Source: Candidatus Omnitrophota bacterium
GTDB lineage: Bacteria > Omnitrophota > Gorgyraeia > Duberdicusellales > 4484-171
Assembly: GCA_043820815.1 (NCBI GenBank)
Contig: JBDRDJ010000020.1
Location: 23,436-87,435 of the forward strand
Direction of reading: 5' to 3'
Length of the DNA stretch: 64,000 bases
Of this stretch, positions 88-64,000 are shown one piece after another (the stretch's first letter is position 1; each line of letters begins with the position of its first letter). Under the pieces are notes generated by a model, which did not search any database, had not been told where the DNA came from, and saw nothing but the letters and a program-made list of their open reading frames with translations. Position numbers and translations under genes: made by a program.

Positions 88-1359
88 ATGCGCAAAAGAG
101 TAGAAGCAAAACTTATAGTTCAGAAGTACGGCGGAAGTTCCCTGGGGGATATTTCAAGAATAGAGAATGTGGCAAGGAGAATTGTTTCGTATTCCCGAAA
201 GGGCATGAGGATATTAGCCGTTGTTTCTGCCATGGGAGATACGACCGATAAATTGATTGAGCTTGCCAAGAAAATAAACCCCAACTATTCCGGGAGAGAA
301 ATGGATATGTTGATGTCAACAGGCGAACAAATATCAAGCGCCCTTCTGGCAATGGCCATACATAAACTCAATGTGGGAGCCATATCCTATACAGGTTCAC
401 AAGCGGGAATTATTACCGACACTCTTCATACCCAGGCTAAGATACGCACTATTAAAACCGTAGGCCGTATAAAAAATGAGCTGGCAAAAGGAAATGTAGT
501 GATTGTTACCGGATTTCAGGGGATTACCCCTGCTTTGGAGATAACTACTTTAGGAAGAGGGGGTTCGGATCTAAGCGCCGTTGCGCTTGCATTTGCCCTG
601 GATGCCGATAGCTGCGAAATCTATACTGATGTTGACGGCATTTATACAGCAGATCCCCGCATAGTGGCTGATGCGAAAAAGCTTAAATATATTACTTTTG
701 ATGAGATGCTTGAGCTTGCTTCAAGAGGCGCTCAGGTTATGCATACAAGGGCGATTGAGGTTGCAAAGAAGTTCAACATACCCTTGCATGTCAGAAGCAG
801 TTTTTTTAAGAAGGAGGGTACAATAATTATGGAAAAAACACCGATTATAGAAGAGCCCGTTGTAAGAGGAGTAACGCTTACTGATAACGAAGCAAAAATA
901 ACCCTTTGTAATGTTCCTGATAAGCCGGGAATAGCCGCAACTGTATTTACAAAACTCGCAAAGGAAAATGTTAATGTAGATATGATTGTTCAAAATGTAA
1001 GTCACAAAAAGATAACGGATATTTCTTTTACCGTGCCCAAAGCAGGGCTTCTTAAAACATGCAAAGTGGCAAAGAAAATAGCTGATGATATCGGCGCCGC
1101 AGGTATCGTTTCGGATGAAACAATAGCTAAAGTATCTATTGTGGGCGTTGGCATGAAGTCGCATTCGGGAGTTGCGGCAAAATGTTTTTCTACGCTTGCA
1201 AAGAATAAAATCAATATCGATATGATTTCTACTTCAGAAATAAGCATATCCTGTGTGGTTAAAGAATATTCGGGAAAGAAAGCGCTAAAGGCGTTACATA
1301 AAGCCTTTGGATTAAGTAGGGGCTCGCCCCCGCCCGTAATAAATATGAAAAATAAATAA
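88..1359 (+). CDS. lysC: aspartate kinase
   Basis: N-terminal KYGGSSLG and VVSAMGDTTD kinase motifs plus two C-terminal ACT-like segments. The last ~14 codons (SRGSPPPVINMKNK) are encoded by the REP-like element at 1316-1345. Confidence 0.93.
   Translation: MRKRVEAKLIVQKYGGSSLGDISRIENVARRIVSYSRKGMRILAVVSAMGDTTDKLIELAKKINPNYSGREMDMLMSTGEQISSALLAMAIHKLNVGAISYTGSQAGIITDTLHTQAKIRTIKTVGRIKNELAKGNVVIVTGFQGITPALEITTLGRGGSDLSAVALAFALDADSCEIYTDVDGIYTADPRIVADAKKLKYITFDEMLELASRGAQVMHTRAIEVAKKFNIPLHVRSSFFKKEGTIIMEKTPIIEEPVVRGVTLTDNEAKITLCNVPDKPGIAATVFTKLAKENVNVDMIVQNVSHKKITDISFTVPKAGLLKTCKVAKKIADDIGAAGIVSDETIAKVSIVGVGMKSHSGVAAKCFSTLAKNKINIDMISTSEISISCVVKEYSGKKALKALHKAFGLSRGSPPPVINMKNK
1316..1345 (+). 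repeat. REP-like element copy 1: GTAGGGGCTCGCCCCCGCCCGTAATAAATA
   Basis: GTAG head, a GC-rich core (degenerate stem GGGGC/GCCCC) and the exact tail CCCGTAATAAATA. It overlaps the lysC 3' end. Confidence 0.7.
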
Positions 1360-1370
1360 GGAGTAACAAT

Positions 1371-2933
1371 ATGAAGAAGGTATCTATCTACGATACGACG
1401 TTACGCGATGGTTCACAGACCGAGGGCATTTCCTATTCGCTAAAGGATAAGATAGCTATCGCCAAGAAACTCGACTCATTCGGTATCGATTTTATCGAAG
1501 GCGGATGGCCTTTTTCTAACCCCAAAGATAAAGAACTATTCGCATATTTTAAAAAGAACCGTCTTAAGAAATCGAAACTTGTGCCTTTCGGTTCGACTGC
1601 TCATCCGGCGAATCCGGCACAGAAGGATAAGAATCTTCTTAGTTTGCTAAAGGCCGATACCGAATATGTTACGATTTTCGGCAAGTCATGGGATTTACAC
1701 GTAAGGGATATTCTAAAGATAAACCTCGATGATAATTTAAAATTAATTACCGAAAGCGTTAAATTCCTTAAAAAAAGAAATAAAAAAGTTTTTTATGACG
1801 CCGAACATTTCTTCGATGGTTTTAATGCCAACCCGGTTTATGCTGTCGAGACTATTAAGGCTGCCTTGGCGGGAGGGTGTGATCTTTTAGTATTTTGCGA
1901 CACAAACGGAGGCATGCTGCCCTGGCAGGTGAGAGATGTTGTTGAAAAAGTCAAGGCGCAAATACGCCTTAACGGATTCGGTATTCACTGTCATAATGAT
2001 TTGGGGTTAGCGGTTGGTAATTCTTTGGTTTGTGTTTGTTGCGGGTGTATCCATATTCAGGGCACGATCAACGGCTATGGTGAGCGCTGCGGCAATGCTG
2101 ACCTTATTCCTATAATGGGTGCATTACAGCTAAAGATGGGTAAAAGGGTTGTTTCTAACCAGAAGATGAAAAGTTTAACAGCTCTTTCGTATTATGTGAG
2201 TGAAGTAAGCAATATGGTACATAAGGAAAATCAGCCTTTTGCGGGTAAAAGCGCTTTTTCTCATAAGGGAGGCATTCATATTGACGCAGTCATTAAGAAT
2301 CCGCTTGCATACGAACACATAGACCCTCAAGAAGTCGGCAACAGGCGCAAGTTTGTTGTTTCTGAGCTTGCCGGTAAATCTACACTTGTTGCAAAAGCAA
2401 AGGAATTAGAATATGATTTAGATAAGAAATCCCCGGCCGCTAAAAAACTCCACAGGCTCATTCAGAGGTTAGAAAATGAAGGCTATCAGTTTGAGGCGGC
2501 GGAAGGTTCTTTCAAGTTACTGCTTAAGAAAGAGTTGGGAAAATGTAAAAAATTCTTTGATCTATGCAGTTTCAGGGTAATCGTTGAGAAAAGGGAAGAT
2601 AACAAACTAATTTCCGAGGCAACAATCAAGCTGAGGATAGACAATAAATTGGAGCACACAGCTTCCGAAGGCGACGGCCCGGTTAACGCATTGGATAATG
2701 CTTTGAGAAAAGCCCTTGAGAAATTCTACCCTCAATTGGCAGGCATGCATCTCATTGATTTTAAAGTCCGGGTATTGGATGAAAAAAGCTCAACCGCCGC
2801 AAAGGTCAGGGTTTTGATTGAATCTCAGGATGAAAACGAAAGCTGGTCAACCGTGGGGGTTTCCGAAAATATCATCGAGGCCTCCTGGCATGCTTTGGTT
2901 GATTCGGTTGAATATAAACTTCTTAAAGACTAA
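1371..2933 (+). CDS. cimA: (R)-citramalate synthase (LeuA/HMGL-like family, CimA type)
   Basis: IYDTTLRDGSQTEGIS start, HCHNDLG metal site and a C-terminal LeuA-dimer-like regulatory domain, 520 aa. It is distinct from the canonical leuA at 8470. SD AAGGAG at 1358-1363. Confidence 0.8.
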   Translation: MKKVSIYDTTLRDGSQTEGISYSLKDKIAIAKKLDSFGIDFIEGGWPFSNPKDKELFAYFKKNRLKKSKLVPFGSTAHPANPAQKDKNLLSLLKADTEYVTIFGKSWDLHVRDILKINLDDNLKLITESVKFLKKRNKKVFYDAEHFFDGFNANPVYAVETIKAALAGGCDLLVFCDTNGGMLPWQVRDVVEKVKAQIRLNGFGIHCHNDLGLAVGNSLVCVCCGCIHIQGTINGYGERCGNADLIPIMGALQLKMGKRVVSNQKMKSLTALSYYVSEVSNMVHKENQPFAGKSAFSHKGGIHIDAVIKNPLAYEHIDPQEVGNRRKFVVSELAGKSTLVAKAKELEYDLDKKSPAAKKLHRLIQRLENEGYQFEAAEGSFKLLLKKELGKCKKFFDLCSFRVIVEKREDNKLISEATIKLRIDNKLEHTASEGDGPVNALDNALRKALEKFYPQLAGMHLIDFKVRVLDEKSSTAAKVRVLIESQDENESWSTVGVSENIIEASWHALVDSVEYKLLKD

Positions 2934-2954
2934 ACAAGGAATATAAAGGCTTAA

Positions 2955-2984
2955 CCCCGGGCATGCCCGTCCCGATAATAAAAT
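2955..2984 (+). repeat. REP-like element copy 2 (diverged): CCCCGGGCATGCCCGTCCCGATAATAAAAT
   Basis: The 12-bp perfect palindrome CGGGCATGCCCG at 2958-2969, then the tail variant CCCGATAATAAAAT. It lies 22 nt after the cimA stop. Confidence 0.55.
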
Positions 2985-3056
2985 CAATAAAATTGATACC
3001 ATAAACGTAATAAAAATTATGAATCATTCAAAATATAACATCGATAAAACAGATTA

Positions 3057-3084
3057 TTGTCATTTTGTCTTTAAATGATATAAT
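3057..3084 (+). promoter_or_regulatory. candidate sigma70-type promoter for ilvB (TTGTCA-16-TGaTATAAT)
   Basis: -35 at 3057-3062 and -10 at 3079-3084 with an upstream TG. It sits in a 226-nt AT-rich gap, the only large gap in the lysC-leuA array. Confidence 0.45.
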
Positions 3085-3159
3085 TTAAAAGCGTTAATAT
3101 GTATGTATTTAGGTATCTTATTAATATAATAAGTACATATAAAAAGTTGGAGATTAGAG

Positions 3160-4860
3160 ATGAAAGGTTCAAAAATTCTTGTTGAATGTCTCATTAAAGA
3201 GGGCGTGGATGTGATTTTTGGCTATCCCGGGGGGTCAATTATTCCCTTTTTTGATTCTCTTTACGATGCCCCTATTAAGTTTTTCCTGACCCGGCATGAG
3301 CAGGCAGCTGCTCATGCTGCTGACGGGTATGCCCGTTCTACCGGTAAAACCGGAGTTTGCGTTGCAACCAGCGGCCCAGGGGCTACAAATTTAACAACCG
3401 GCATAGCGACTGCGCATATGGATTCGGTTCCCATGGTTGCAATTACCGGCCAGGTTAAAACTTCCTTGATAGGAAACGATGCTTTTCAGGAGGCTGATAT
3501 AACCGGCATAAGCCGTTCCATCAGCAAGCATAACTATCTTGTTAAAAAGGTTGAAGATTTATCATATACGGTAAAGGAAGCGTTTTATCTTGCAAATAGC
3601 GGGCGCCCCGGCCCGGTTGTTATTGATCTTCCCGTTGATATTCAGCTGCAAGATACCGAATTTAAATACTTTGAGAAGATTGATATTCGTAGTTACCATC
3701 CAACGCTTTTCGAGCATCCCGGACAGATAAAAAAAGTCCTTAAACATATTTATAAAGCAAAGCGTCCCGTGATCATTGCCGGAGGAGGCGTTATTATCTC
3801 AGGGGCAAGCCACGAGCTTTTGCAGTTTGCCGAGTGTGCAAATATTCCTGTTACCGAAACCCTTATGGGTTTAGGGGGGTTTCCTTCGACGCATAAGCTT
3901 TCGCTGGGCATGCCCGGCATGCACGGAACTGTCTATGCCAATATGGCGATAACCGAAAGCGATTTGCTTATCTCTATCGGGTCCCGTTTTGACGACAGGG
4001 TTACAGGAAAGATTGATGAATTTGCCCCGGGAGCCAAAATTATTCACATAGACATAGACCCTACTTCCATAAGTAAAAATATAAGCGTTGATGTCCCTAT
4101 TGTGGGAGATGCCCGGAATGTTTTGCGTCAGCTTATTGATGAGTTTGACCGGTCTAAAATTCCGGATTTAGCGCCGTGGCATAAAAAAATAAAGGATTGG
4201 AAAAGAAAGCACCCGCTTTCTTATAAAAAGAGCCTAAAGGAAAAAATAAAGCCCCAGCATGTCATTGAAGAGCTTTATGCTAAAACAAAAGGCGGTGCTA
4301 TTATCGTTACTGAGGTCGGCCAAAATCAAATGTGGGCCGCACAGTATTATAAGGCTGACTACCCGAGGCATTTTCTCTCAAGCGGCGGGTTAGGAACTAT
4401 GGGTTATGGTTTTCCTGCAGCTATTGGGGCAAAAGTGGCAAATCCTTCTAAAGAAGTGGTGGTTATAGCCGGCGACGGGTCGATTCAAATGAACATACAG
4501 GAATTAGCCACTTTGAGCACTTACAATATTAACGTGAAAATAATAATTCTTAACAATCATTACCTTGGCATGGTTCGTCAATGGCAGGAGTTATTTTACA
4601 ACCGGCGTTATTCAGGAACCCATTTAAAAAATCCTGATTTTGTTAAAGTTGCTCAAGGCTATGGCATAAAAGGCATTCAGGTAAGAAAGCCAAGCGAAGT
4701 TAAAAAGGCAATAAAAGAAATTATCTCTTACAAGGGGCCGGTCATGGCTGATTTTTTAATCGAGGAAGAAGAAAATGTCTTTCCTATGGTTCCCGCGGGA
4801 GAGGCGATTAACAGGATGATCGGGGGGAATGGCGTAGAAAAATTAAAAATCAAATATTAA
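3160..4860 (+). CDS. ilvB: acetolactate synthase large (catalytic) subunit
   Basis: ThDP-enzyme motifs GYPGGSIIPFFD, HEQAAAHAADGYAR, SGPGATNL and GDGSIQMNIQEL. The C-terminal EKLKIKY is encoded by a heptamer array. Confidence 0.93.
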   Translation: MKGSKILVECLIKEGVDVIFGYPGGSIIPFFDSLYDAPIKFFLTRHEQAAAHAADGYARSTGKTGVCVATSGPGATNLTTGIATAHMDSVPMVAITGQVKTSLIGNDAFQEADITGISRSISKHNYLVKKVEDLSYTVKEAFYLANSGRPGPVVIDLPVDIQLQDTEFKYFEKIDIRSYHPTLFEHPGQIKKVLKHIYKAKRPVIIAGGGVIISGASHELLQFAECANIPVTETLMGLGGFPSTHKLSLGMPGMHGTVYANMAITESDLLISIGSRFDDRVTGKIDEFAPGAKIIHIDIDPTSISKNISVDVPIVGDARNVLRQLIDEFDRSKIPDLAPWHKKIKDWKRKHPLSYKKSLKEKIKPQHVIEELYAKTKGGAIIVTEVGQNQMWAAQYYKADYPRHFLSSGGLGTMGYGFPAAIGAKVANPSKEVVVIAGDGSIQMNIQELATLSTYNINVKIIILNNHYLGMVRQWQELFYNRRYSGTHLKNPDFVKVAQGYGIKGIQVRKPSEVKKAIKEIISYKGPVMADFLIEEEENVFPMVPAGEAINRMIGGNGVEKLKIKY

Positions 4861-4885
4861 AAATCAAAATGAGAAAATAAAAATA
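4837..4885 (+). repeat. heptamer-phased array, NAAAAAT family (7 units)
   Basis: GAAAAAT TAAAAAT CAAATAT TAAAAAT CAAAATG AGAAAAT AAAAATA. It spans the ilvB stop codon at 4858-4860. Confidence 0.75.
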
Positions 4886-4887
4886 TT

Positions 4888-4924
4888 GTAGGGGCCGGCC
4901 TCTGTGCCGGCCCGATGCAATAGA
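4888..4924 (+). repeat. REP-like element copy 3: GTAGGGGCCGGCCTCTGTGCCGGCCCGATGCAATAGA
   Basis: GTAG head, the 8-bp stem GGGCCGGC (4892-4899)/GCCGGCCC (4906-4913) with a 6-nt loop, and a tail variant. Confidence 0.7.
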
Positions 4925-4942
4925 GAATCCTTGGAGGTTGCA

Positions 4943-5416
4943 ATGAAACATACGATACAAGCGTTGGTTGAGAATAAGTTTGGTGTATTAGCAAGGGTGG
5001 CTTCTCTTTTTAGCGCCCGCGGATATAACATAAGTTCCCTCGCCGTTGGAGAAACTCATGACCCCAGCGTTTCATGTATGACTTTGGTTGTGGATGCACC
5101 GGATGAGAGAATTTTAGAACAAATAAAGAAGCAGCTGCACAAGCTGATAGATGTGATTGCGGTAGTTGATTTCACCCGGAAGGACCACATCGACAGAGAG
5201 CTTATTCTCATAAAAATTGCCAAGAAGCCAAAAAGCAAACCTGTTATTGATAAGTTAACAAAAGCTTATCCCGTAGAAATTATTGAAGAAAAAGACTCAT
5301 ATTACATAATTGAAGTCTATGCCCAGATGAAGCAGGAAGAGGAGATTTTGAAACAACTTAAGCAAATAGGCATAAAGGAACTGGTAAGGTCGGGTAAGAT
5401 CGCTATCGGTAAATAA
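4943..5416 (+). CDS. ilvN: acetolactate synthase small (regulatory) subunit
   Basis: ACT domain ([26 protein letters not shown]). I chose ATG 4943, preceded by GGAGG at 4933-4937. The track ORF start at 4904 (GTG) lies inside the upstream hairpin repeat. Confidence 0.9.
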
Positions 5417-5417
5417 T

Positions 5418-5454
5418 GCAGGGGCGGGGCGCTTGCCTGCGCCCGTAATAAATA
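5418..5454 (+). repeat. REP-like element copy 4: GCAGGGGCGGGGCGCTTGCCTGCGCCCGTAATAAATA
   Basis: The 6-bp stem GGGCGC (5427-5432)/GCGCCC (5439-5444), the alternative pairing GCAGG/CCTGC, and the exact tail CCCGTAATAAATA at 5442-5454. Confidence 0.7.
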
Positions 5455-5474
5455 ACGAAATAAGGAGGAATAAA

Positions 5475-6470
5475 ATGGCAAAGGTTTACTATGATCAGGA
5501 CGCGGATTTAGATTTAATAAAGGCAAAAAAGATTGCAATTATCGGCTATGGTATCCAAGGGCGCGGCCAGGCATTGTGCCTTCGTGATTCCGGGTGTAAC
5601 GTTATTGTTTCAGAGGTTCCCGGGACAGAAAACTATAGCCAGGCCCAGAAGGATGGTTTTGAGCCTGTTGATGCAGCACTTGCTGCTAAAAAAGCGGGTG
5701 TAATACAGATTTTAACCCAGGATCATGTTCAGGCAAAAGTATATAAGGAAAGCATAAAATCGCAGCTTAAAAAAGGCAAATCTCTCTGTTTTTCGCACGG
5801 ATTTAATATAAGGTTTAAGCAAATAAGGCCGCCCAAAAAGGTAGATGTATTTATGGTTGCCCCCAAAGGCCCGGGCGCGCTTGTGCGCCGGATGTATGAA
5901 CAGGGAAAAGGAGTGCCATGTTTAATAGCCGTGCATCAGGATATATCCGGGTCTGCAAAGCAGTTAGCTCTCTCATACGCAAAAGCTATTGGCGGAACAA
6001 GAATGGGTGTAATTGAAACTACTTTTACAGAGGAAACAGAGACTGATTTATTCGGTGAGCAGGCTGTTCTTTGCGGCGGAGTGGCCGAACTTATCAAAGC
6101 CGGTTTTGATACGCTTATGGATGCAGGATACCAGCCGGAGATTGCCTATTTCGAAGTTCTCCATGAGTTAAAATTGATTACGGATTTAATACAAGAGGCA
6201 GGTATCAGCGGGATGAGAAGAAAGGTTTCTAACACCGCCTGTTACGGAGATTTAACCCGCGGGCCTCGCGTAATCGATACTAAGGTCAGAAAAACAATGA
6301 AAAAGATGTTAAAAGAGATTCAATCCGGAAAGTTTGCCAGAGAATGGATTAAAGAGAATGAATCCGGAAGAGAAAGTTTTAACAACCTGCTCAAAGCCGG
6401 CGATTCACATCCTATTGAAGAAGTCGGTAAAAAGTTAAGAGAAATGATGCCCTGGATGAAAGAGGGTTAA
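5475..6470 (+). CDS. ilvC: ketol-acid reductoisomerase
   Basis: The [19 protein letters not shown] Rossmann motif and full-length class I KARI similarity. ATG 5475 follows AAGGAGG at 5462-5468. The track start at 5433 lies within the repeat. Confidence 0.95.
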
Positions 6471-11493: not shown

Positions 11494-12320
11494 TGGTTTT
11501 GATTGAGAGAATATTTGTGTTTTTCTTCGGTGTATGCTTCGGCAGCTTTCTCAATGTTTGTATTTACCGGTTACCTAAAGATAAGTCTGTTATCCTGCCG
11601 CGGTCGTTCTGCCCGCATTGCAATCAATCTCTAAAGTGGTATGACAATATTCCCGTAATCAGCTTTATGGCCTTAAGAGGTAAATGCAGGTTTTGTAAGG
11701 AAAAAATTTCTTTTAGATACCCTTTGGTTGAATTAATCACGGCAGTTTTAATTTTAGTGTTGTATATTCAGTTTGGAATTTCCCTTTTATTTGTGAAATT
11801 AGCTTTTCTTTTTTGCATTCTTATAGTGGTTTCTTTTATAGATATTGATTATCATGCCATACCGGCCTATTTGTGTGTCCTTGGGATAATCACAGGGCTT
11901 ATTATGTCTTTGGCAGAAAGCGTAAGCATGTTTAAAGATGGGATAACGCCATTAGGAAAACTGCCTGTTATGGGAGCATGGTACGGGCTGATAGCCGGGC
12001 TGGGGTTTACCTATCTATTTAAACTCTTTGGCGATTTCTTTATAAACATTTACTTAACATTAAGAAAAAAAGATTCTATTGAAGGCGAGCGCGAGTCTCT
12101 TGGCCTCGGTGATGTTGATTTCATGGGGATGATAGGGGCTTTCTTGGGAATAAAAGTTGCAATTCTTGTTTTCTTTATCGCGCCTTTTATCGCGATCGTA
12201 TATTCGATTTTCGCAATTATATTTAAGAAATCTCATCTTATACCGTATTTGCCTTATTTATCTCTGGCAACATTAGTCGTATTTTTCTGGGGAGATGTGA
12301 TACTCAGGATTATTTTTTGA
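11493..12320 (+). CDS. pilD: prepilin peptidase / N-methyltransferase (peptidase A24)
   Basis: N-terminal Cys-motif region (CPHCNQSLKWYDNIPVISF..RGKCRFCKEKIS) followed by polytopic membrane domain with GLGDVDFMGMIGAFLG. Confidence 0.9.
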   Translation: MVLIERIFVFFFGVCFGSFLNVCIYRLPKDKSVILPRSFCPHCNQSLKWYDNIPVISFMALRGKCRFCKEKISFRYPLVELITAVLILVLYIQFGISLLFVKLAFLFCILIVVSFIDIDYHAIPAYLCVLGIITGLIMSLAESVSMFKDGITPLGKLPVMGAWYGLIAGLGFTYLFKLFGDFFINIYLTLRKKDSIEGERESLGLGDVDFMGMIGAFLGIKVAILVFFIAPFIAIVYSIFAIIFKKSHLIPYLPYLSLATLVVFFWGDVILRIIF

Positions 12321-12382
12321 TTGGACGATATAATTTTAACTATGATCAGTGGTTTGAAGGCAAATAAAAAAAAGGGGGCGCA

Positions 12383-16426: not shown

Positions 16427-16481
16427 ATGAGGCAGCATCTTTTGCCGAGAGTAGCGAGAGCAAAAGTGCGTAGCCGAATTT

Positions 16482-16526
16482 ACCCTGAGCGGAGTCCAGA
16501 CGATAGTCTGGACGCAGTCGAAGGGT
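16482..16526 (+). repeat. nested hairpin ACCCT..GTCCAGAC-GATA-GTCTGGAC..AGGGT in mnmE-folE spacer
   Basis: Inner 8-bp stem (16494-16501/16506-16513) with a GATA loop, and an outer 5-bp stem (16482-16486/16522-16526). Confidence 0.6.
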
Positions 16527-16547
16527 GAAAAGAAAGGCGGTAAACAA

Positions 16548-30428: not shown

Positions 30429-33305
30429 ATGCTGAAAAAAATAATTTTAAGTAAATGCCGCAAAAGAATCAATTCTATAAAGCCGCCGGTACAAATTAAT
30501 GTAACCGGGGATATACCCACCCCGTCTATACGTGAGATATCTAACTGGGCACCTATCGCCGGCATGGTCAATTCATTCGAGGAAGAATTAAAAGATAAGC
30601 CGGCCGGCTTTTTCAAAGATATAACTTCCCGCTACAAAAATGAAATAAGCGAGAAATTAAAAAACATTCCCGAAGATAAACTTAAAGCTTTCCGCCAGGA
30701 AGTGTTAGATAATATTTTGCCTTATTATTTTGCCGTAGTTAGAGAGGCGGCATTTAGAGCCGTGAAAATGAGGCATTTTGATGTTCAGGTGCTGGGAGGG
30801 GTCTCCCTTCATAAGAACATGATTGCCGAGATGGTTACCGGAGAAGGCAAAACACTTGTGGCCACGCTTTCTGCTTCATTGAACGCTCTCTGCGGCATGG
30901 GGGTGCATATAGTTACCGTTAATGATTATCTGGCTAAAAGGGACAGGGAGTGGATGGGGCCTATATTTGAATATCTCGGATTTACCGTAGGCGTAATCCA
31001 GAATGAAAGTTCTAAAGAGGAGCGAAAAGCCGCTTATTCTTGCGATATAACCTATGGGACTAATAATGAGTTTGGTTTTGATTACTTAAGAGACAATATG
31101 GAGATGACACTTTCCGGCATGGTACAGCGGAGCCACTTTTATGCTATCATTGATGAGGTTGATTCTATTTTAGTAGATGAAGCCCGAACCCCCCTTATTA
31201 TCTCAGGGCCTGCCGAAGCTTCGGTTGAGAAATATTATCTGGCTGACAGGGCAGTAAGGCAGCTGAGCATCCATTTTATAATTCAGAGTTTTGACGGTAA
31301 AGGCAGAGACGGAATGGTTACGGTAAAACATTCCGACGGCAGCGAGAAAACAATAAGTCTTGAGGATTTCGAAACAGGCCACGATGCGATTGTTGAAGAA
31401 AAGGCAAGCACTGCATACCTAACGCCCCGCGGAGAAAAAAGGTGTGAAAAGCTTTTGGGCGTAAACAACCTTGAGGAGGCACCTGATAAGTATTCCGAGC
31501 CCTGGATGCATTATATAACCCAGAGTCTGCGCGCTCGCTATCTTTTCCGTAAAGACAAAGATTATATAGTAAAAAACGGTAAAGCTATTATTGTAGATGA
31601 TTTTACAGGGCGCCTTATGCCCGGCAGAAGATGGTCCGACGGGCTGCATCAGGGGGTAGAGGCAAAAGAGAATTTAAGAATTGAACAGGAAAATCAGACA
31701 CTTGCAACCGTTACTTTGCAAAATTATTTCAGAATGTATGAAAAACTTGCCGGAATGACAGGAACCGCATATACAGAAGCAAATGAATTCAGGCATATTT
31801 ATAAACTTGACGTAGCGGTTATGCCTACAAATGAGGATTTAATCAGAACTAATTTTCCTGACAGGATATACAAGACAAAAGATGCAAAATTTAAAGCCGT
31901 AGTTTCAGAGATTGAGGAATTATATGAGAAGAAACGCCCGGTTCTGGTTGGTACAACTTCAATTGAAGATTCCGAAGAAGTTTCTTTTTTGCTTGGCAAA
32001 AAAGGCATACAGCATAACGTGTTGAATGCTAAATATCATGAAAGGGAGGCTTTTATCGTTGCTCAGGCAGGAAGGATGGGCCAGGTAACCATTGCAACAA
32101 ATATGGCCGGAAGAGGAACCGATATTATACTGGGAGGCAATATAGATTACTTTATAAAAGATATGTTATCCAGGAATAATATTGGCCCCGAAGACCCTCT
32201 TCATGGCGGTGAATACGAAAATTTATACCAAAAATACAAATATAAATTTGAAGAGGAACACAAAGCCGTTGTTGAGCTGGGAGGCCTTCATGTCATCGGT
32301 ACCCAGCGCCATGAATCCCGCAGAATTGATAATCAATTGAGGGGGCGTTCCGGCCGCCAGGGAGACCCCGGGTCTTCGCGTTTTTATGTTTCCTTAGAGG
32401 ATGACCTTCTGCGCCTTTTCGGTTCCCTGGGGGTGATACATTTTCTAATGAATCAGCTTCCTGACGACCAGCCCATAGAGCACAGCCGCATCAAGAGGCC
32501 TCTGGAAATTGCCCAGAAGAGGGTTGAGGGGCATCATTTCGAAGCCCGCAAAGATCTTTTAAAATACGACAATATAATGAACTCTCAAAGAGAAATTATT
32601 TACAGCCAGAGAAGAGATATACTTGAGAGGGATGATATAAAGGAAGATGTGCTTGAGATGTTAAAAGAAGTAATAGGCAGGAATGCCGGAGTTTTCTTCG
32701 GCGAAGACAGAGACAGCCTCGGATTATACCACTGGTTTAAATCCAAGTTCGACATTGATATATCAACTTCAAAATTAAAGGATATGTCATTAGACGAAGC
32801 TTTGGAATATTTGCATAAGATTGCCATGGATGTCTACCTTATGCACGAGCAGAAAATAGGCCCGGATAACATGCGCCGCATTGAGAAGTTCATCACTATA
32901 AGAGTAGTTGACGGGCGCTGGAAAGAGCACCTTTTAATAATGGATTCGCTGCGCGAGGGTATTTCATTAAGAGCCCATGCCCAGCAGGACCCTCTGGTTG
33001 AGTATCAAAAAGAATCTTATGAGGCATTCAATGCTATGGTTGCCTCTGTTAAAGAAGGCGTAACCGATTTGATATTCAAAGCAAATTTGTTTGTGCCTCA
33101 GGATGAAGAAGGGGTTTCTCCGTTAGCTGCCCGTGAATTTGTGCATTCACGTGTTTCCCTTGTTGAGGAAGCAAAAGCGGCGGCGATTAAACCGCCTGAG
33201 AAAAAAGCAGTTCCTATCCGCTCGGGGAAAAAAGTCGGGAGAAACGAGCCTTGCCCCTGCGGAAGCGGGAAGAAATACAAAAAGTGCTGCGGTATTGACA
33301 AGTAG
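30429..33305 (+). CDS. secA: preprotein translocase ATPase SecA
   Basis: MVTGEGKTLVATL Walker A, DEVDSILVDEARTPLIISG, and the C-terminal zinc motif CPCGSGKKYKKCCG. Confidence 0.95.
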   Translation: MLKKIILSKCRKRINSIKPPVQINVTGDIPTPSIREISNWAPIAGMVNSFEEELKDKPAGFFKDITSRYKNEISEKLKNIPEDKLKAFRQEVLDNILPYYFAVVREAAFRAVKMRHFDVQVLGGVSLHKNMIAEMVTGEGKTLVATLSASLNALCGMGVHIVTVNDYLAKRDREWMGPIFEYLGFTVGVIQNESSKEERKAAYSCDITYGTNNEFGFDYLRDNMEMTLSGMVQRSHFYAIIDEVDSILVDEARTPLIISGPAEASVEKYYLADRAVRQLSIHFIIQSFDGKGRDGMVTVKHSDGSEKTISLEDFETGHDAIVEEKASTAYLTPRGEKRCEKLLGVNNLEEAPDKYSEPWMHYITQSLRARYLFRKDKDYIVKNGKAIIVDDFTGRLMPGRRWSDGLHQGVEAKENLRIEQENQTLATVTLQNYFRMYEKLAGMTGTAYTEANEFRHIYKLDVAVMPTNEDLIRTNFPDRIYKTKDAKFKAVVSEIEELYEKKRPVLVGTTSIEDSEEVSFLLGKKGIQHNVLNAKYHEREAFIVAQAGRMGQVTIATNMAGRGTDIILGGNIDYFIKDMLSRNNIGPEDPLHGGEYENLYQKYKYKFEEEHKAVVELGGLHVIGTQRHESRRIDNQLRGRSGRQGDPGSSRFYVSLEDDLLRLFGSLGVIHFLMNQLPDDQPIEHSRIKRPLEIAQKRVEGHHFEARKDLLKYDNIMNSQREIIYSQRRDILERDDIKEDVLEMLKEVIGRNAGVFFGEDRDSLGLYHWFKSKFDIDISTSKLKDMSLDEALEYLHKIAMDVYLMHEQKIGPDNMRRIEKFITIRVVDGRWKEHLLIMDSLREGISLRAHAQQDPLVEYQKESYEAFNAMVASVKEGVTDLIFKANLFVPQDEEGVSPLAAREFVHSRVSLVEEAKAAAIKPPEKKAVPIRSGKKVGRNEPCPCGSGKKYKKCCGIDK

Positions 33306-33359: not shown

Positions 33360-33391
33360 GTGTAGAGACGCGATTAATCGCGTCTCTACAC
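33360..33391. repeat. perfect 32-bp palindrome GTGTAGAGACGCGATTAATCGCGTCTCTACAC (GTAG-headed)
   Basis: The first 16 nt are the exact reverse complement of the last 16. It lies 55 nt after the secA stop and 12 nt before the lnt ATG. Confidence 0.9.
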
Positions 33392-47356: not shown

Positions 47357-47466
47357 GAGCGTATTGTATCAAATAGCTTGTGGAAAGTCAATCAATGTGG
47401 TAAAATCGAATCCGTTTACGCCAGGGTTTAAGCTTGATTCTGTCGGTTTATGATAACATTTAAAAA

Positions 47467-52159: not shown

Positions 52160-52232
52160 GAGCCGCTAGCTCATCTGGTAGAGCACCGGCCTTTTAAGCC
52201 GGGTGTGCCGAGTTCGAGCCTCGGGCGGCTCA
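52160..52232 (+). tRNA. tRNA-Lys (anticodon UUU)
   Basis: Hand-folded cloverleaf: acceptor GAGCCGC/GCGGCTC, D arm GCTC..GAGC, anticodon stem CCGGC/GCCGG with loop CTTTTAA, and T arm CCGAG-TTCGAGC-CTCGG. No encoded CCA. Confidence 0.9.
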
Positions 52233-52238
52233 TATTTA

Positions 52239-52319
52239 GCCGCGGTGGCGGAATTGGCAGACGCGCATGGCTTAGGACCATGTCCTAAACGGGTGGGAGT
52301 TCAACTCTCCCCCGCGGCA
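52239..52319 (+). tRNA. tRNA-Leu (anticodon UAG)
   Basis: Acceptor GCCGCGG/CCGCGGC, anticodon stem CATGG/CCATG with loop CTTAGGA, a long variable arm, and T arm GGGAG-TTCAACT-CTCCC. No encoded CCA. Confidence 0.88.
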
Positions 52320-52320
52320 G

Positions 52321-52390
52321 AATAGCAAATGGCAAATGACTAACGGTAAATAGTATTCAACCGTTTTCATTTTTGATATTTGATTTGATT
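52321..52390. repeat. heptamer-phased spacer between tRNA-Leu and tRNA-Gly
   Basis: AATAGCA AATGGCA AATGACT AACGGTA AATAGTA (52321-52355), then an inverted NAAAAAT mini-array (52366-52390; reverse complement ..CAAATAT CAAAAAT..). Confidence 0.65.
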
Positions 52391-52392
52391 GT

Positions 52393-52466
52393 GCGGGGGT
52401 AGCTCAATTGGCTAGAGCGTCACGTTGCCAACGTGAAGGTTGAGGGTTCAATCCCCTTTCCCCGCT
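52393..52466 (+). tRNA. tRNA-Gly (anticodon GCC)
   Basis: Acceptor GCGGGGG/TCCCCGC (one G-U pair), anticodon stem TCACG/CGTGA with loop TTGCCAA, and T arm GAGGG-TTCAATC-CCCTT. No encoded CCA. Confidence 0.88.
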
Positions 52467-60719: not shown

Positions 60720-60751
60720 AGCAAAGATAATGAACCCCCCGACTGTAATAT

Positions 60752-60799
60752 CAAAAATCAAAATGTAAATATCAAAATTACATATCAAAATGTAAAATG
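60752..60799 (+). repeat. NAAAAAT-family heptamer array, direct orientation (left arm)
   Basis: CAAAAAT CAAAATG TAAATAT CAAAATT ACATAT CAAAATG TAAAATG. Confidence 0.7.
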
Positions 60800-60824
60800 T
60801 TTAAAAGAAAGCGCAAAAGAAAAT

Positions 60825-60879
60825 ATTTTTGATTTTTAATTTGTCATTTTGATTTTTAATTTTTGATATTTAATTTTTT
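60825..60879 (-). repeat. NAAAAAT-family heptamer array, inverted orientation (right arm)
   Basis: The + strand reads ATTTTTG ATTTTTA ATTTGTC ATTTTG ATTTTTA ATTTTTG ATATTTA ATTTTTT. Its reverse complement contains ATTAAAAATCAAAATGA, identical to 4856-4872. Confidence 0.7.
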
Positions 60880-62757: not shown

Positions 62758-63762
62758 ATGGCTGAAAAAAGAGAATTGCCTGATTTCACAAAAAGAGATT
62801 TCACCGATATAAAATCATTTTTGCTGGTACTTAAGAAAGACTACTCAAGTGTTGTTTCAAAAAGCATGTCTTCTGATACTCGTTCGTTTTTAAGCCGTTA
62901 TTACGATGGCTGCAGAATAAGTCATCCACATAAGAAATACTTGATAAAGGATCTCAATAATCTTATCGCTGATGAGTCTTTGTATCATGTAACGGCCGGG
63001 CGTTGCGCAGGCAAAAATCTTGATATAAATTTATCACAAAGGACAAAAGAATTCTTCGATGAGCTTTCTTTTCTTAACGAAGATTCTGATGGATTAACAC
63101 CGTCTCAAAAGGTCAAAATAAAATGGCTTAACCGTTTGATCCTTCAAGATATGTATCCTAAGGCAATAAGGGCTATTGAGCCCAAAGGTATCATAAGAGA
63201 GTGGATAGAGGCATTCATATTTGCCGGGATTCTTGTTGTATTTGTAAGAACTTTTTTCTTTCAGATGTATAAGATTCCAACCACTTCAATGGTCCCCACG
63301 CTTTTACCCAAGGATAAAATATTTGCCAGTAAGGTTAACTATGGGCCTAAGCTGCCTTTTATTTCCTTGTGCATTCCCGGATTAAGCAAGCCTAAAACAG
63401 GAGAAGTGGTTGTGTTTATTCCTCCCGAGGAAAGCGGAAAGAACTGGTTTGTGCGAAAACAGTACATAAAGCGGCTTATCGGAACAGGAGGTGATAAAAT
63501 ACGTATTGCCGACGGAAACATTTATATAAACGGTAAAATAGTAGTTGACCCGCGCATAGCAAAGAATTATTATTATAATCTGGGGCTATACGGTAAGGAA
63601 GGTAAAGAAATCGAAGTTCCCGAAGGAAAATATTTCTTCTTAGGAGATAACAGCATAAATTCTCAGGATAGCAGGGTCTGGGGTTTTGCTGACGAAAAAG
63701 ATATAATAGGTAAAGCTATTTTCATCTGGTGGCCTCCTAAGCGAATCGGCATGATCGAATAA
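62758..63762 (+). CDS. lepB: signal peptidase I with ~140-aa N-terminal extension
   Basis: The catalytic Ser context PTTSMVPTL, the Lys box YIKRLIG, and GDNSINSQDSR. The TM helix is at about aa 150-165. Confidence 0.88.
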   Translation: MAEKRELPDFTKRDFTDIKSFLLVLKKDYSSVVSKSMSSDTRSFLSRYYDGCRISHPHKKYLIKDLNNLIADESLYHVTAGRCAGKNLDINLSQRTKEFFDELSFLNEDSDGLTPSQKVKIKWLNRLILQDMYPKAIRAIEPKGIIREWIEAFIFAGILVVFVRTFFFQMYKIPTTSMVPTLLPKDKIFASKVNYGPKLPFISLCIPGLSKPKTGEVVVFIPPEESGKNWFVRKQYIKRLIGTGGDKIRIADGNIYINGKIVVDPRIAKNYYYNLGLYGKEGKEIEVPEGKYFFLGDNSINSQDSRVWGFADEKDIIGKAIFIWWPPKRIGMIE

Positions 63763-63770
63763 AATAATAC

Positions 63771-63838
63771 GTAGGAGCAGGGCTTGTGACCGAAGGGAAC
63801 CCTGAGTATTTCCGAAGGGCCCCTGCCCGTAATAAATA
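63771..63838 (+). repeat. REP-like element copy 5 with a 38-nt insertion in the loop
   Basis: GTAGGAGCAGGG..CCCTGCCCGTAATAAATA, with stem GCAGGG (63777-63782)/CCCTGC (63821-63826). The interior carries CGAAGGG/ACCCTGAG words also seen at 16482-16526. Confidence 0.7.
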
Positions 63839-63858: not shown

Positions 63859-64000
63859 ATGAAAAAGTTAACGATATTTCTAAGCGTTCTAATTGCGATG
63901 GTTGCAATATCCGGATGCACAACAACGCAAAAAGGTGCGGCAACGGGAGCCGCAGTGGGAGCTGGTTTAGGGGCAATTATCGGGCATCAGTCAGGTGAAA
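63859..64000 (+). CDS. small glycine-zipper lipoprotein (5' partial, runs off window)
   Basis: SD AAGGAGGG at 63847-63854, signal peptide with lipobox AISGC, then GAATGAAVGAGLGAIIG (glycine zipper). Confidence 0.6.
   Translation, partial: MKKLTIFLSVLIAMVAISGCTTTQKGAATGAAVGAGLGAIIGHQSGE

Follow-up and report, generated by a model that had tools for sequence, protein, structure and literature searches.

Hairpin repeats in the lysC-ilvC gene array of a Candidatus Omnitrophota bacterium are probably GTAG-tagged REP elements of a single lineage

We analysed a stretch of 64,000 nucleotides from a Candidatus Omnitrophota bacterium (assembly GCA_043820815.1, contig JBDRDJ010000020.1, positions 23,436 to 87,435; hereafter the window), in which an earlier note, made from the sequence, had described hairpins with a GTAG head and a conserved tail between the genes of the lysC-cimA-ilvB-ilvN-ilvC array. 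The repeat unit consists of an unpaired GTAG or GCAG head, a GGGC-stem-GCCC hairpin and an A/T-rich tail, and is present in four co-oriented copies starting at 1316, 4888, 5418 and 63771, for which we keep the numbers 1, 3, 4 and 5 (Table 1). Our data indicate that these hairpins are probably copies of a GTAG-tagged repetitive extragenic palindromic (REP) family carried by one Candidatus Omnitrophota lineage, and not an old conserved control module. As judged from comparison with related genomes, the copies came to lie just past or in the 3' ends of co-directional genes, and the lysC/cimA and ilvB/ilvN gene pairs were split.

The sequences quoted previously for 1316-1345, 4888-4924, 5418-5454 and 63771-63838 were found exactly as given. 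The 13-mer CCCGTAATAAATA occurs three times, as had been claimed (at 1333, 5442 and 63826), always on the + strand and nowhere else in the window, against an expectation of 0.01 from dinucleotide shuffles, of which 0/100 reached three occurrences. The 9-mer TAATAAATA is absent from the rest of the window, the tail thus being always tied to the hairpin there, and the head GTAGGGGC, with at most one mismatch, is not enriched by itself in the window (30 found versus 30.9 expected). Three copies were grouped by a repeat finder as family D5; over a stretch of 27 nt, copies 1 and 4 share 85% identity. The distances from the tail to the next ATG are 25, 20 and 20 nt with AAGGAG(G) inside, in agreement with the 20-25 nt noted before, and 18 nt for copy 3. 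Copy 4 begins 1 nt past the ilvN stop and ends 20 nt ahead of the ilvC ATG; copy 5 follows a signal peptidase gene (62758-63762) and precedes a small lipoprotein-like open reading frame (ORF; ATG at 63859).

The stems noted before for copies 3 (8 bp) and 4 (6 bp) were both confirmed. Folding each copy gave −8.9 kcal/mol (z = −0.6) for copy 1, −21.1 kcal/mol (z = −3.3) for copy 3, −16.5 kcal/mol (z = −0.9) for copy 4 and −19.1 kcal/mol (z = −0.4) for copy 5. Copy 3 alone thus folds better than its own shuffles, and copies 1, 4 and 5 (z = −0.4 to −0.9) do not. With its filters switched off, a covariance model for the family recovered the four copies within the 64-kb window: copies 1 and 3, which belong to its training set, scored 38 and 37 bits, copy 4 scored 40.7 bits and copy 5 was detected by its 3' part alone (63814-63838, E = 0.035). 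The hairpin at 2955-2984, listed earlier as a further copy (copy 2), has no GTAG head, forms a 4-5 bp stem of −6.2 kcal/mol (z = −1.0) and is missed by the model, with filters off, even at E <= 10. It is consequently not supported as a family member, and the proposed presence at four consecutive junctions of the array stood for three (1316, 4888 and 5418).

Subsequently, we compared the array with that of six relatives (L022, L024/L025, L041, L042, L043 (CP070684.1) and L044; CimA 75-78% identical), which are Omnitrophota where the source names them. A protein from a Candidatus Omnitrophota metagenome-assembled genome matches the CimA of the window with 100% identity. The lysC gene adjoins cimA in 6/6 and the full lysC-cimA-ilvB-ilvN-ilvC order is kept in 5/6. 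The GTAG element is absent at every junction in the six relatives, and the covariance model found none in ~80 kb of their sequence. Their lysC/cimA gaps measure −4, −4, −4, 2, 53 and 97 nt, and their ilvB/ilvN gaps 1, 1 and −4 nt (L022, L024 and L043), with a 44-codon ORF in between in the other two. Since the relatives are free of the element and these genes mostly overlap or abut in them, the window copies as a group are insertions specific to one Omnitrophota lineage, and the comparison identifies copies 1 and 3 as lineage-specific insertions into compact junctions. From the same gaps, the genes of the two split junctions were probably translationally coupled before. The length of the ilvN-ilvC spacer differs from genome to genome (10-104 nt), and its sequence in the relatives is unrelated. 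Two observations concern the relatives themselves. The 44-codon ORF between ilvB and ilvN (L041 8268-8402, L042 8395-8529) is very lysine-/arginine-rich and overlaps the ilvB stop; it has no Pfam match on record and is absent from the window, L022, L024 and L043. The two closest relatives share an ilvN-ilvC spacer hairpin, ACATCCCGCATTAG(A/C)GGGATAATTC (L022 9805-9910, L024 9820-9917), unrelated to the GTAG element.

The insertions coincide with altered ends of two proteins. All copies are co-oriented with the genes, as stated previously, but the description of each as lying between a stop and a start codon failed for copy 1, which is inside the lysC ORF. The TAA/TAG triplets at 1313-1319 are out of frame and the ORF continues through copy 1 to a TAA at 1357-1359. 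Its C-terminus reads ...KAFGLSRGSPPPVINMKNK before the stop, copy 1 encoding a 14-residue extension, and LysC has 423 aa in the window versus 409-410 aa in 6/6 relatives. Copy 1 has thus become the final 14 codons of LysC. The IlvB protein ends in ...NRMIGGMA in 5/5 relatives keeping ilvB near cimA and in ...NRMIGGNGVEKLKIKY in the window, where the ancestral end ATGGCGTAG (M A stop) persists at 4829-4837, behind six consecutive G (4822-4827) and shifted out of frame by one base, and the ORF extends 8 codons past the ancestral stop, to 4860. This change of frame is due to a true frameshift or to an assembly error in the homopolymer. Because the ancestral end is still in place, the 105 nt of 4838-4942, which have no counterpart in relatives with abutting or overlapping genes, are extra. 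The TTGGAGG Shine-Dalgarno (SD) sequence by ilvN in this spacer resembles the ancestral SD inside ilvB, which could simply reflect selection for an SD. No consistent direct repeat that could be a target-site duplication flanks the copies. The A-rich ATCAAAA(T) repeats of the same spacer (family D1, 4839-4882) recur at 60733-60876, where they are followed by the inverted complement TTTTGATTTTTAAT; they may be another small AT-rich palindromic repeat.

In addition, members of the family were found outside the window by scanning one genome per species with the pattern AGGGGC, 4-34 nt, GCCCGTAATAAATA. The genome scan gave 20 matches, roughly the chance number by our own estimate, a metagenome scan 14, mostly from the same families, and a viral scan one; about half of the matches look like chance, and the scans, which required the tail, cannot gauge tail variation. 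Out of the 20 genome matches, ten are preceded by GT and hence start with GTAG (~1/16 expected, by our own estimate), and all ten form clean 6-10 bp hairpins; an eleventh clean hairpin is headed by ATAG (L011). The members come from Omnitrophota metagenome-assembled genomes (L005 and L016), Atribacterota (three loci), a Cyanobacteriota metagenome-assembled genome (two loci), low-GC gut Clostridium, high-GC Oscillospiraceae/Lawsonibacter, other Clostridia and two unassigned metagenome contigs. Another Omnitrophota match (L003), with neither GTAG nor a clean hairpin, was not counted. Aligned members share GTAG, GGGC/GCCC and the tail, and the four inner stem pairs all vary with changes on both sides. 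Across 14 elements, 22 cells are changed on both sides versus 6.7 in shuffles (0/500 as high) and 94% of stem cells are paired versus 32-51% with the partner slid, in an alignment of hand-picked members whose outer four pairs and tail were fixed by the search pattern.

In these genomes, GTAG hairpins of the same or a similar kind were found with different tails as well, namely GAGATAAGTAAA in L010 (Atribacterota) and ACAATAAAAAGC in L037 (Clostridium). The Clostridium contig has two tandem copies at 5062-5150, with the same hairpin and the tails ACAATAAAAAGC and GTAATAAATA, and the related contig L006 has one copy (2314-2347), a further difference in presence between relatives. The tailed elements are accompanied there by additional GTAG hairpins, which are arranged in tandem or, between convergent genes, as inverted pairs whose partners have different stems (L009/L014 and L019). 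In the Atribacterota sequences L002, L010, L020 and L031, a second, different GTAG hairpin follows the tailed hairpin in the same orientation after 4 or 7 nt, with the spacer ATAT in L031 and TTGTGCT in L002, L010 and L020; the second stem-loop of L020 is degenerate. This tandem composite is present at three loci, and head-to-tail pairs are reported to be rare for REPs.

The element is co-oriented with the upstream gene at 12/12 scorable independent loci outside the window, as it is in the four window copies. At the outside loci it usually starts 0-28 nt past the upstream stop, and the next start follows the tail at a distance of ~1, 6, 10, 14 or 27 nt at some and of 84 to >200 nt at others; at one locus the next gene is convergent. 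As this distance varies elsewhere, the 18-25 nt spacing of the window is not a property of the family, and the fixed geometry relative to the downstream start, to which the earlier note had given weight, was not upheld. AAGGAG(G) is the ordinary SD sequence of the window genome, present also at genes without the GTAG element, and nearness to the upstream stop has been published for plain REPs. The spacing in the window matches the room for an SD in a compact genome, where the median co-directional spacer is ~35 nt. Furthermore, the orientation in the window could follow replication instead of transcription, since 51 of ~56 genes lie on the + strand and the GC skew is positive throughout.

A superfamily of GTAG-tagged REPs was described in 8 phyla, including the Planctomycetes-Verrucomicrobia-Chlamydiae (PVC) superphylum, by Di Nocera, De Gregorio and Rocco in 2013 (PMC3733652). 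Its stems have 5-13 bp and its sub-families differ by complementary changes; the elements lie mostly between unidirectional or convergent genes near the 3' end of the upstream ORF, the GTAG often provides the TAG stop of that ORF, some copies are inside ORF ends, and some families have short conserved motifs on the side opposite GTAG (PMC3733652). The REP-like nature suggested by the earlier note agrees with this description. The GTAG at 1316, 4888 and 63771 and the GCAG at 5418 are likewise unpaired beside a GC-rich stem-loop. Stem lengths are uneven, with 8 bp in copy 3, 6 bp in copy 4, a bulged 7 bp around the 35-nt insert in copy 5 and 4 bp, below the published range, in copy 1. Complementary changes of the inner pairs, location just past ORF 3' ends between unidirectional or convergent genes, a GTAG end beside the stop, occasional copies inside ORF ends and presence that varies between relatives (none in L022, L024, L025 and L041-L044) are also common to both. 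Apart from the long conserved tail and the short stem of copy 1, the features of the window element match the published description.

We propose that the family spreads as single-stranded DNA hairpins, which would be handled by a Y1/HUH transposase encoded elsewhere in the genome and similar to the REP-associated tyrosine transposases (RAYT) whose link to REPs was reported by Nunvar et al. in 2010 (PMC2817692). GTAG, the stem base and perhaps the tail would be the parts recognised by such an enzyme. Copies would persist only at sites where a stop for the upstream ORF remains and the ribosome-binding site of the next gene is preserved, and this filter in a compact genome would give rise to the apparently fixed geometry. 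At the two split junctions, the transcribed hairpin probably abolishes stop/start translational coupling, and it may shield the upstream cistron from 3' exonucleases, as a side effect and not as the reason for the presence of the element. Such an RNA-level effect is possible by analogy with the REPs and bacterial interspersed mosaic elements (BIMEs) of E. coli (e.g. malE-malF), which are also hairpins in polycistronic mRNA a few nt from the upstream stop (1 nt for copy 4). With such hairpins, a protected 3' end of the upstream cistron and a hindrance to terminating ribosomes would be expected here. Liang, Rudd and Deutscher reportedly found in 2015 that an E. coli REP near the stop codon lowers upstream translation; by this analogy, the hairpin 1 nt past the ilvN stop may hinder terminating ribosomes. 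Nevertheless, the E. coli elements are longer, imperfect and usually paired, and apart from GTAG the sequences are unrelated.

Other small repeats offer further parallels. Similar to the Rickettsia palindromic elements (RPEs) and intragenic REPs, the palindrome of copy 1 is translated in frame at the end of LysC, although RPEs have 100-150 bp and lie within genes, while the effect in the window is limited to the 14 C-terminal codons. The window copies share with Neisseria Correia elements, enterobacterial repetitive intergenic consensus (ERIC) sequences and transcribed miniature inverted-repeat transposable elements (MITEs) that they are small non-autonomous gene-adjacent repeats, co-transcribed, with hairpins that can alter mRNA processing. 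In contrast to MITEs, they show no terminal inverted repeats or consistent target-site duplications, the hairpin being their sole inverted repeat.

Several points weigh against the assignment of the window hairpins to a REP family. In agreement with the earlier note, no RAYT gene was found among the window ORFs tested: a Pfam scan of 20 small or unassigned window ORFs and of the scanned loci detected no RAYT/Y1 domain and a crude motif search of the window and of loci outside it was also negative, so that mobilisation by RAYT is inferred only. The 64 kb hold four copies, three of them within 4.2 kb; GTAG-tagged REP families typically have >100 copies dispersed over a genome. Moreover, the window copies are all singletons in one orientation and not the fixed-spacing inverted pairs of BIMEs and of REP doublets forming hairpins (REPINs), while many REP families are mostly inverted dimers, and very similar units in several phyla are likewise unlike the described families. 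Unusually for described REPs, the 10-nt A/T-rich 3' flank GTAATAAATA is exactly conserved between copies with different stems; it could have a function. Co-orientation at the 12 outside loci and the four window copies would fit selection at the RNA level as well. A tail conserved exactly and co-orientation without exception thus leave some room for a selected RNA role.

The earlier note had inferred a domesticated intercistronic module. On this view, as we develop it here, selection would retain an RNA module whose hairpin and single-stranded GUAAUAAAUA tail help to process the transcript, stabilise its 3' end or offer an A/U-rich standby site for ribosomes or S1 landing pad, and which sets the relative expression of neighbouring cistrons. 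Strict co-orientation with the gene upstream at 16/16 scorable loci, conservation that is higher in the tail than in the stems, a tail never present in the window without the hairpin, several copies in other phyla located 1-27 nt 5' of a start, and two insertions that swapped translational coupling for a hairpin and an independent SD would all be in line with it. However, the same junctions have no element in 6/6 relatives, copy 1, its stem decayed to 4 bp, is located within an ORF and alters the C-terminus of LysC, the geometry outside the window ranges from ~1 to >200 nt and convergent genes flank some copies, Atribacterota and Clostridium have the same hairpins with different tails, and with 51/56 genes on the + strand and a positive GC skew the orientation could track replication. 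We therefore regard domestication as unlikely. A bolder version, in which the GTAG hairpin with its GUAAUAAAUA tail would be a transcription-oriented, horizontally spreading intercistronic cassette common to Omnitrophota, Atribacterota, Clostridia and a Cyanobacteriota lineage that inserts behind stops, swaps coupling for a hairpin-protected 3' end, gives the next cistron an A/U-rich landing or processing site and depends on this RNA-level function for its persistence, seems to us very unlikely.

The clustering at 1316, 4888 and 5418 within 4.2 kb and the 85% identity of copies 1 and 4 over 27 nt could also point to a spacer motif propagated locally by recombination, gene conversion or duplication between nearby spacers without any transposase, of which none was found among the ORFs and loci scanned; a tandem duplication of the element indeed distinguishes the Clostridium contigs L037 and L006. 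Simple copying would not be expected to yield compensating stem differences, though, and the fourth copy 58 kb away and the same element type in several phyla make this origin highly improbable. In a biosynthetic operon, GC-rich hairpins located at the ends of genes, one of which (the unsupported copy 2) is at the end of the lysC-cimA unit and 5' of the ilvB promoter, might in turn be intrinsic terminators or attenuators, or an amino-acid-responsive leader of a branched-chain amino acid operon. Yet no U-tract follows any hairpin, the tail being GUAAUAAAUA, a terminator scan was negative at the elements, the orthologous operons have no element, and the same element lies between the signal peptidase and lipoprotein-like genes. 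Nor is there an Rfam match: three tRNAs alone pass the gathering threshold in the window and nothing relevant appears at E <= 5 in 1250-5520. This reading is largely refuted and we give it next to no probability.

The window has 40% G+C. A promoter-like sequence ahead of ilvB (Table 1) is kept in L022, L024 and L043; the array therefore probably comprises two transcription units, lysC-cimA and ilvBNC. The promoter-like motif recurs at 3062-3089, 12312-12339 and 47437-47464 (family D4), ending in GATATAATTT(A/T)AA or GATAACATTTAAA. The tail of the element was considered as a −10 promoter box and dismissed, as it poorly matches the TGATATAAT type of the window genome and lies ~1 nt from a start codon in L016. 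A literature search for the head 8-mer GTAGGGGC returned primer noise alone. The three tRNA genes, the sole Rfam matches in the window, are within a 392-nt spacer (52160-52466). A second, different REP-like element, the perfect GTAG...CTAC palindrome GTAGAGACGCGATTAATCGCGTCTCTAC at 33362-33389 (with flanks −32 kcal/mol, z = −7.3), is located in the spacer after a 958-aa ORF (30429-33305; SecA by length and by the annotation of a 958-aa SecA in L043). Another structured intergenic element at 16440-16540 (−36.7 kcal/mol, z = −4.4), 5' of a GTP cyclohydrolase I gene, has an 8-bp inner stem GTCCAGAC/GTCTGGAC inside ACCCTGAG...CGAAGGGT. A link between it and the 35-nt insert of copy 5 was dropped, the two sharing one 8-mer and one 7-mer.

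Table 1. Features of the lysC-ilvC array and hairpin copies in the window. Positions are counted from the first nucleotide of the window.
Feature	Position	Strand	Description
lysC	88-1359	+	ORF
Copy 1	1316-1345	+	GTAG head, degenerate 4-bp GGGC...GCCC hairpin, tail GTAATAAATA; inside lysC 3' end
cimA	1371-2933	+	ORF
Claimed copy 2	2955-2984	+	Short palindrome GGGCATGCCC, then A-rich run; 3' of cimA stop, 5' of ilvB promoter
ilvB promoter, sigma-70-like	3057-3084	+	TTGTCA, 16 nt, TGATATAAT; 11/12 matches, extended −10
ilvB	3160-4860	+	ORF
ilvB-ilvN spacer	4838-4942	+	105 nt; A-rich repeat (4839-4882), copy 3, new SD TTGGAGG for ilvN
Copy 3	4888-4924	+	GTAG head, perfect 8-bp stem GGGCCGGC/GCCGGCCC, loop CTCTGT, variant tail GATGCAATAGA; 18 nt 5' of ilvN ATG (4943)
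ilvN	4943-5416	+	ORF; stop 5414-5416
Copy 4	5418-5454	+	GCAG head, extra GGGCG, 6-bp stem GGGCGC/GCGCCC, tail GTAATAAATA
ilvC	5475-6470	+	ORF; ATG at 5475
Copy 5	63771-63838	+	GTAGGA head, bulged 7-bp outer stem GCAGGGC/GCCCCTGC around 35-nt insert, tail GTAATAAATA

If the window hairpins are GTAG-tagged REPs, Omnitrophota, a poorly studied phylum of the PVC group, would be added to the lineages known to carry them. The two split junctions would provide a natural example of REPs that separate overlapping, translationally coupled genes and rewrite the C-terminus of a protein, and the LysC of the window, 14 residues too long owing to the repeat, is of relevance for annotation. The A/T-rich tail and the strict co-orientation are the sole features that go beyond textbook REPs; a function for them would be relevant to the long-standing debate over whether REPs are selfish elements or of use to their hosts.

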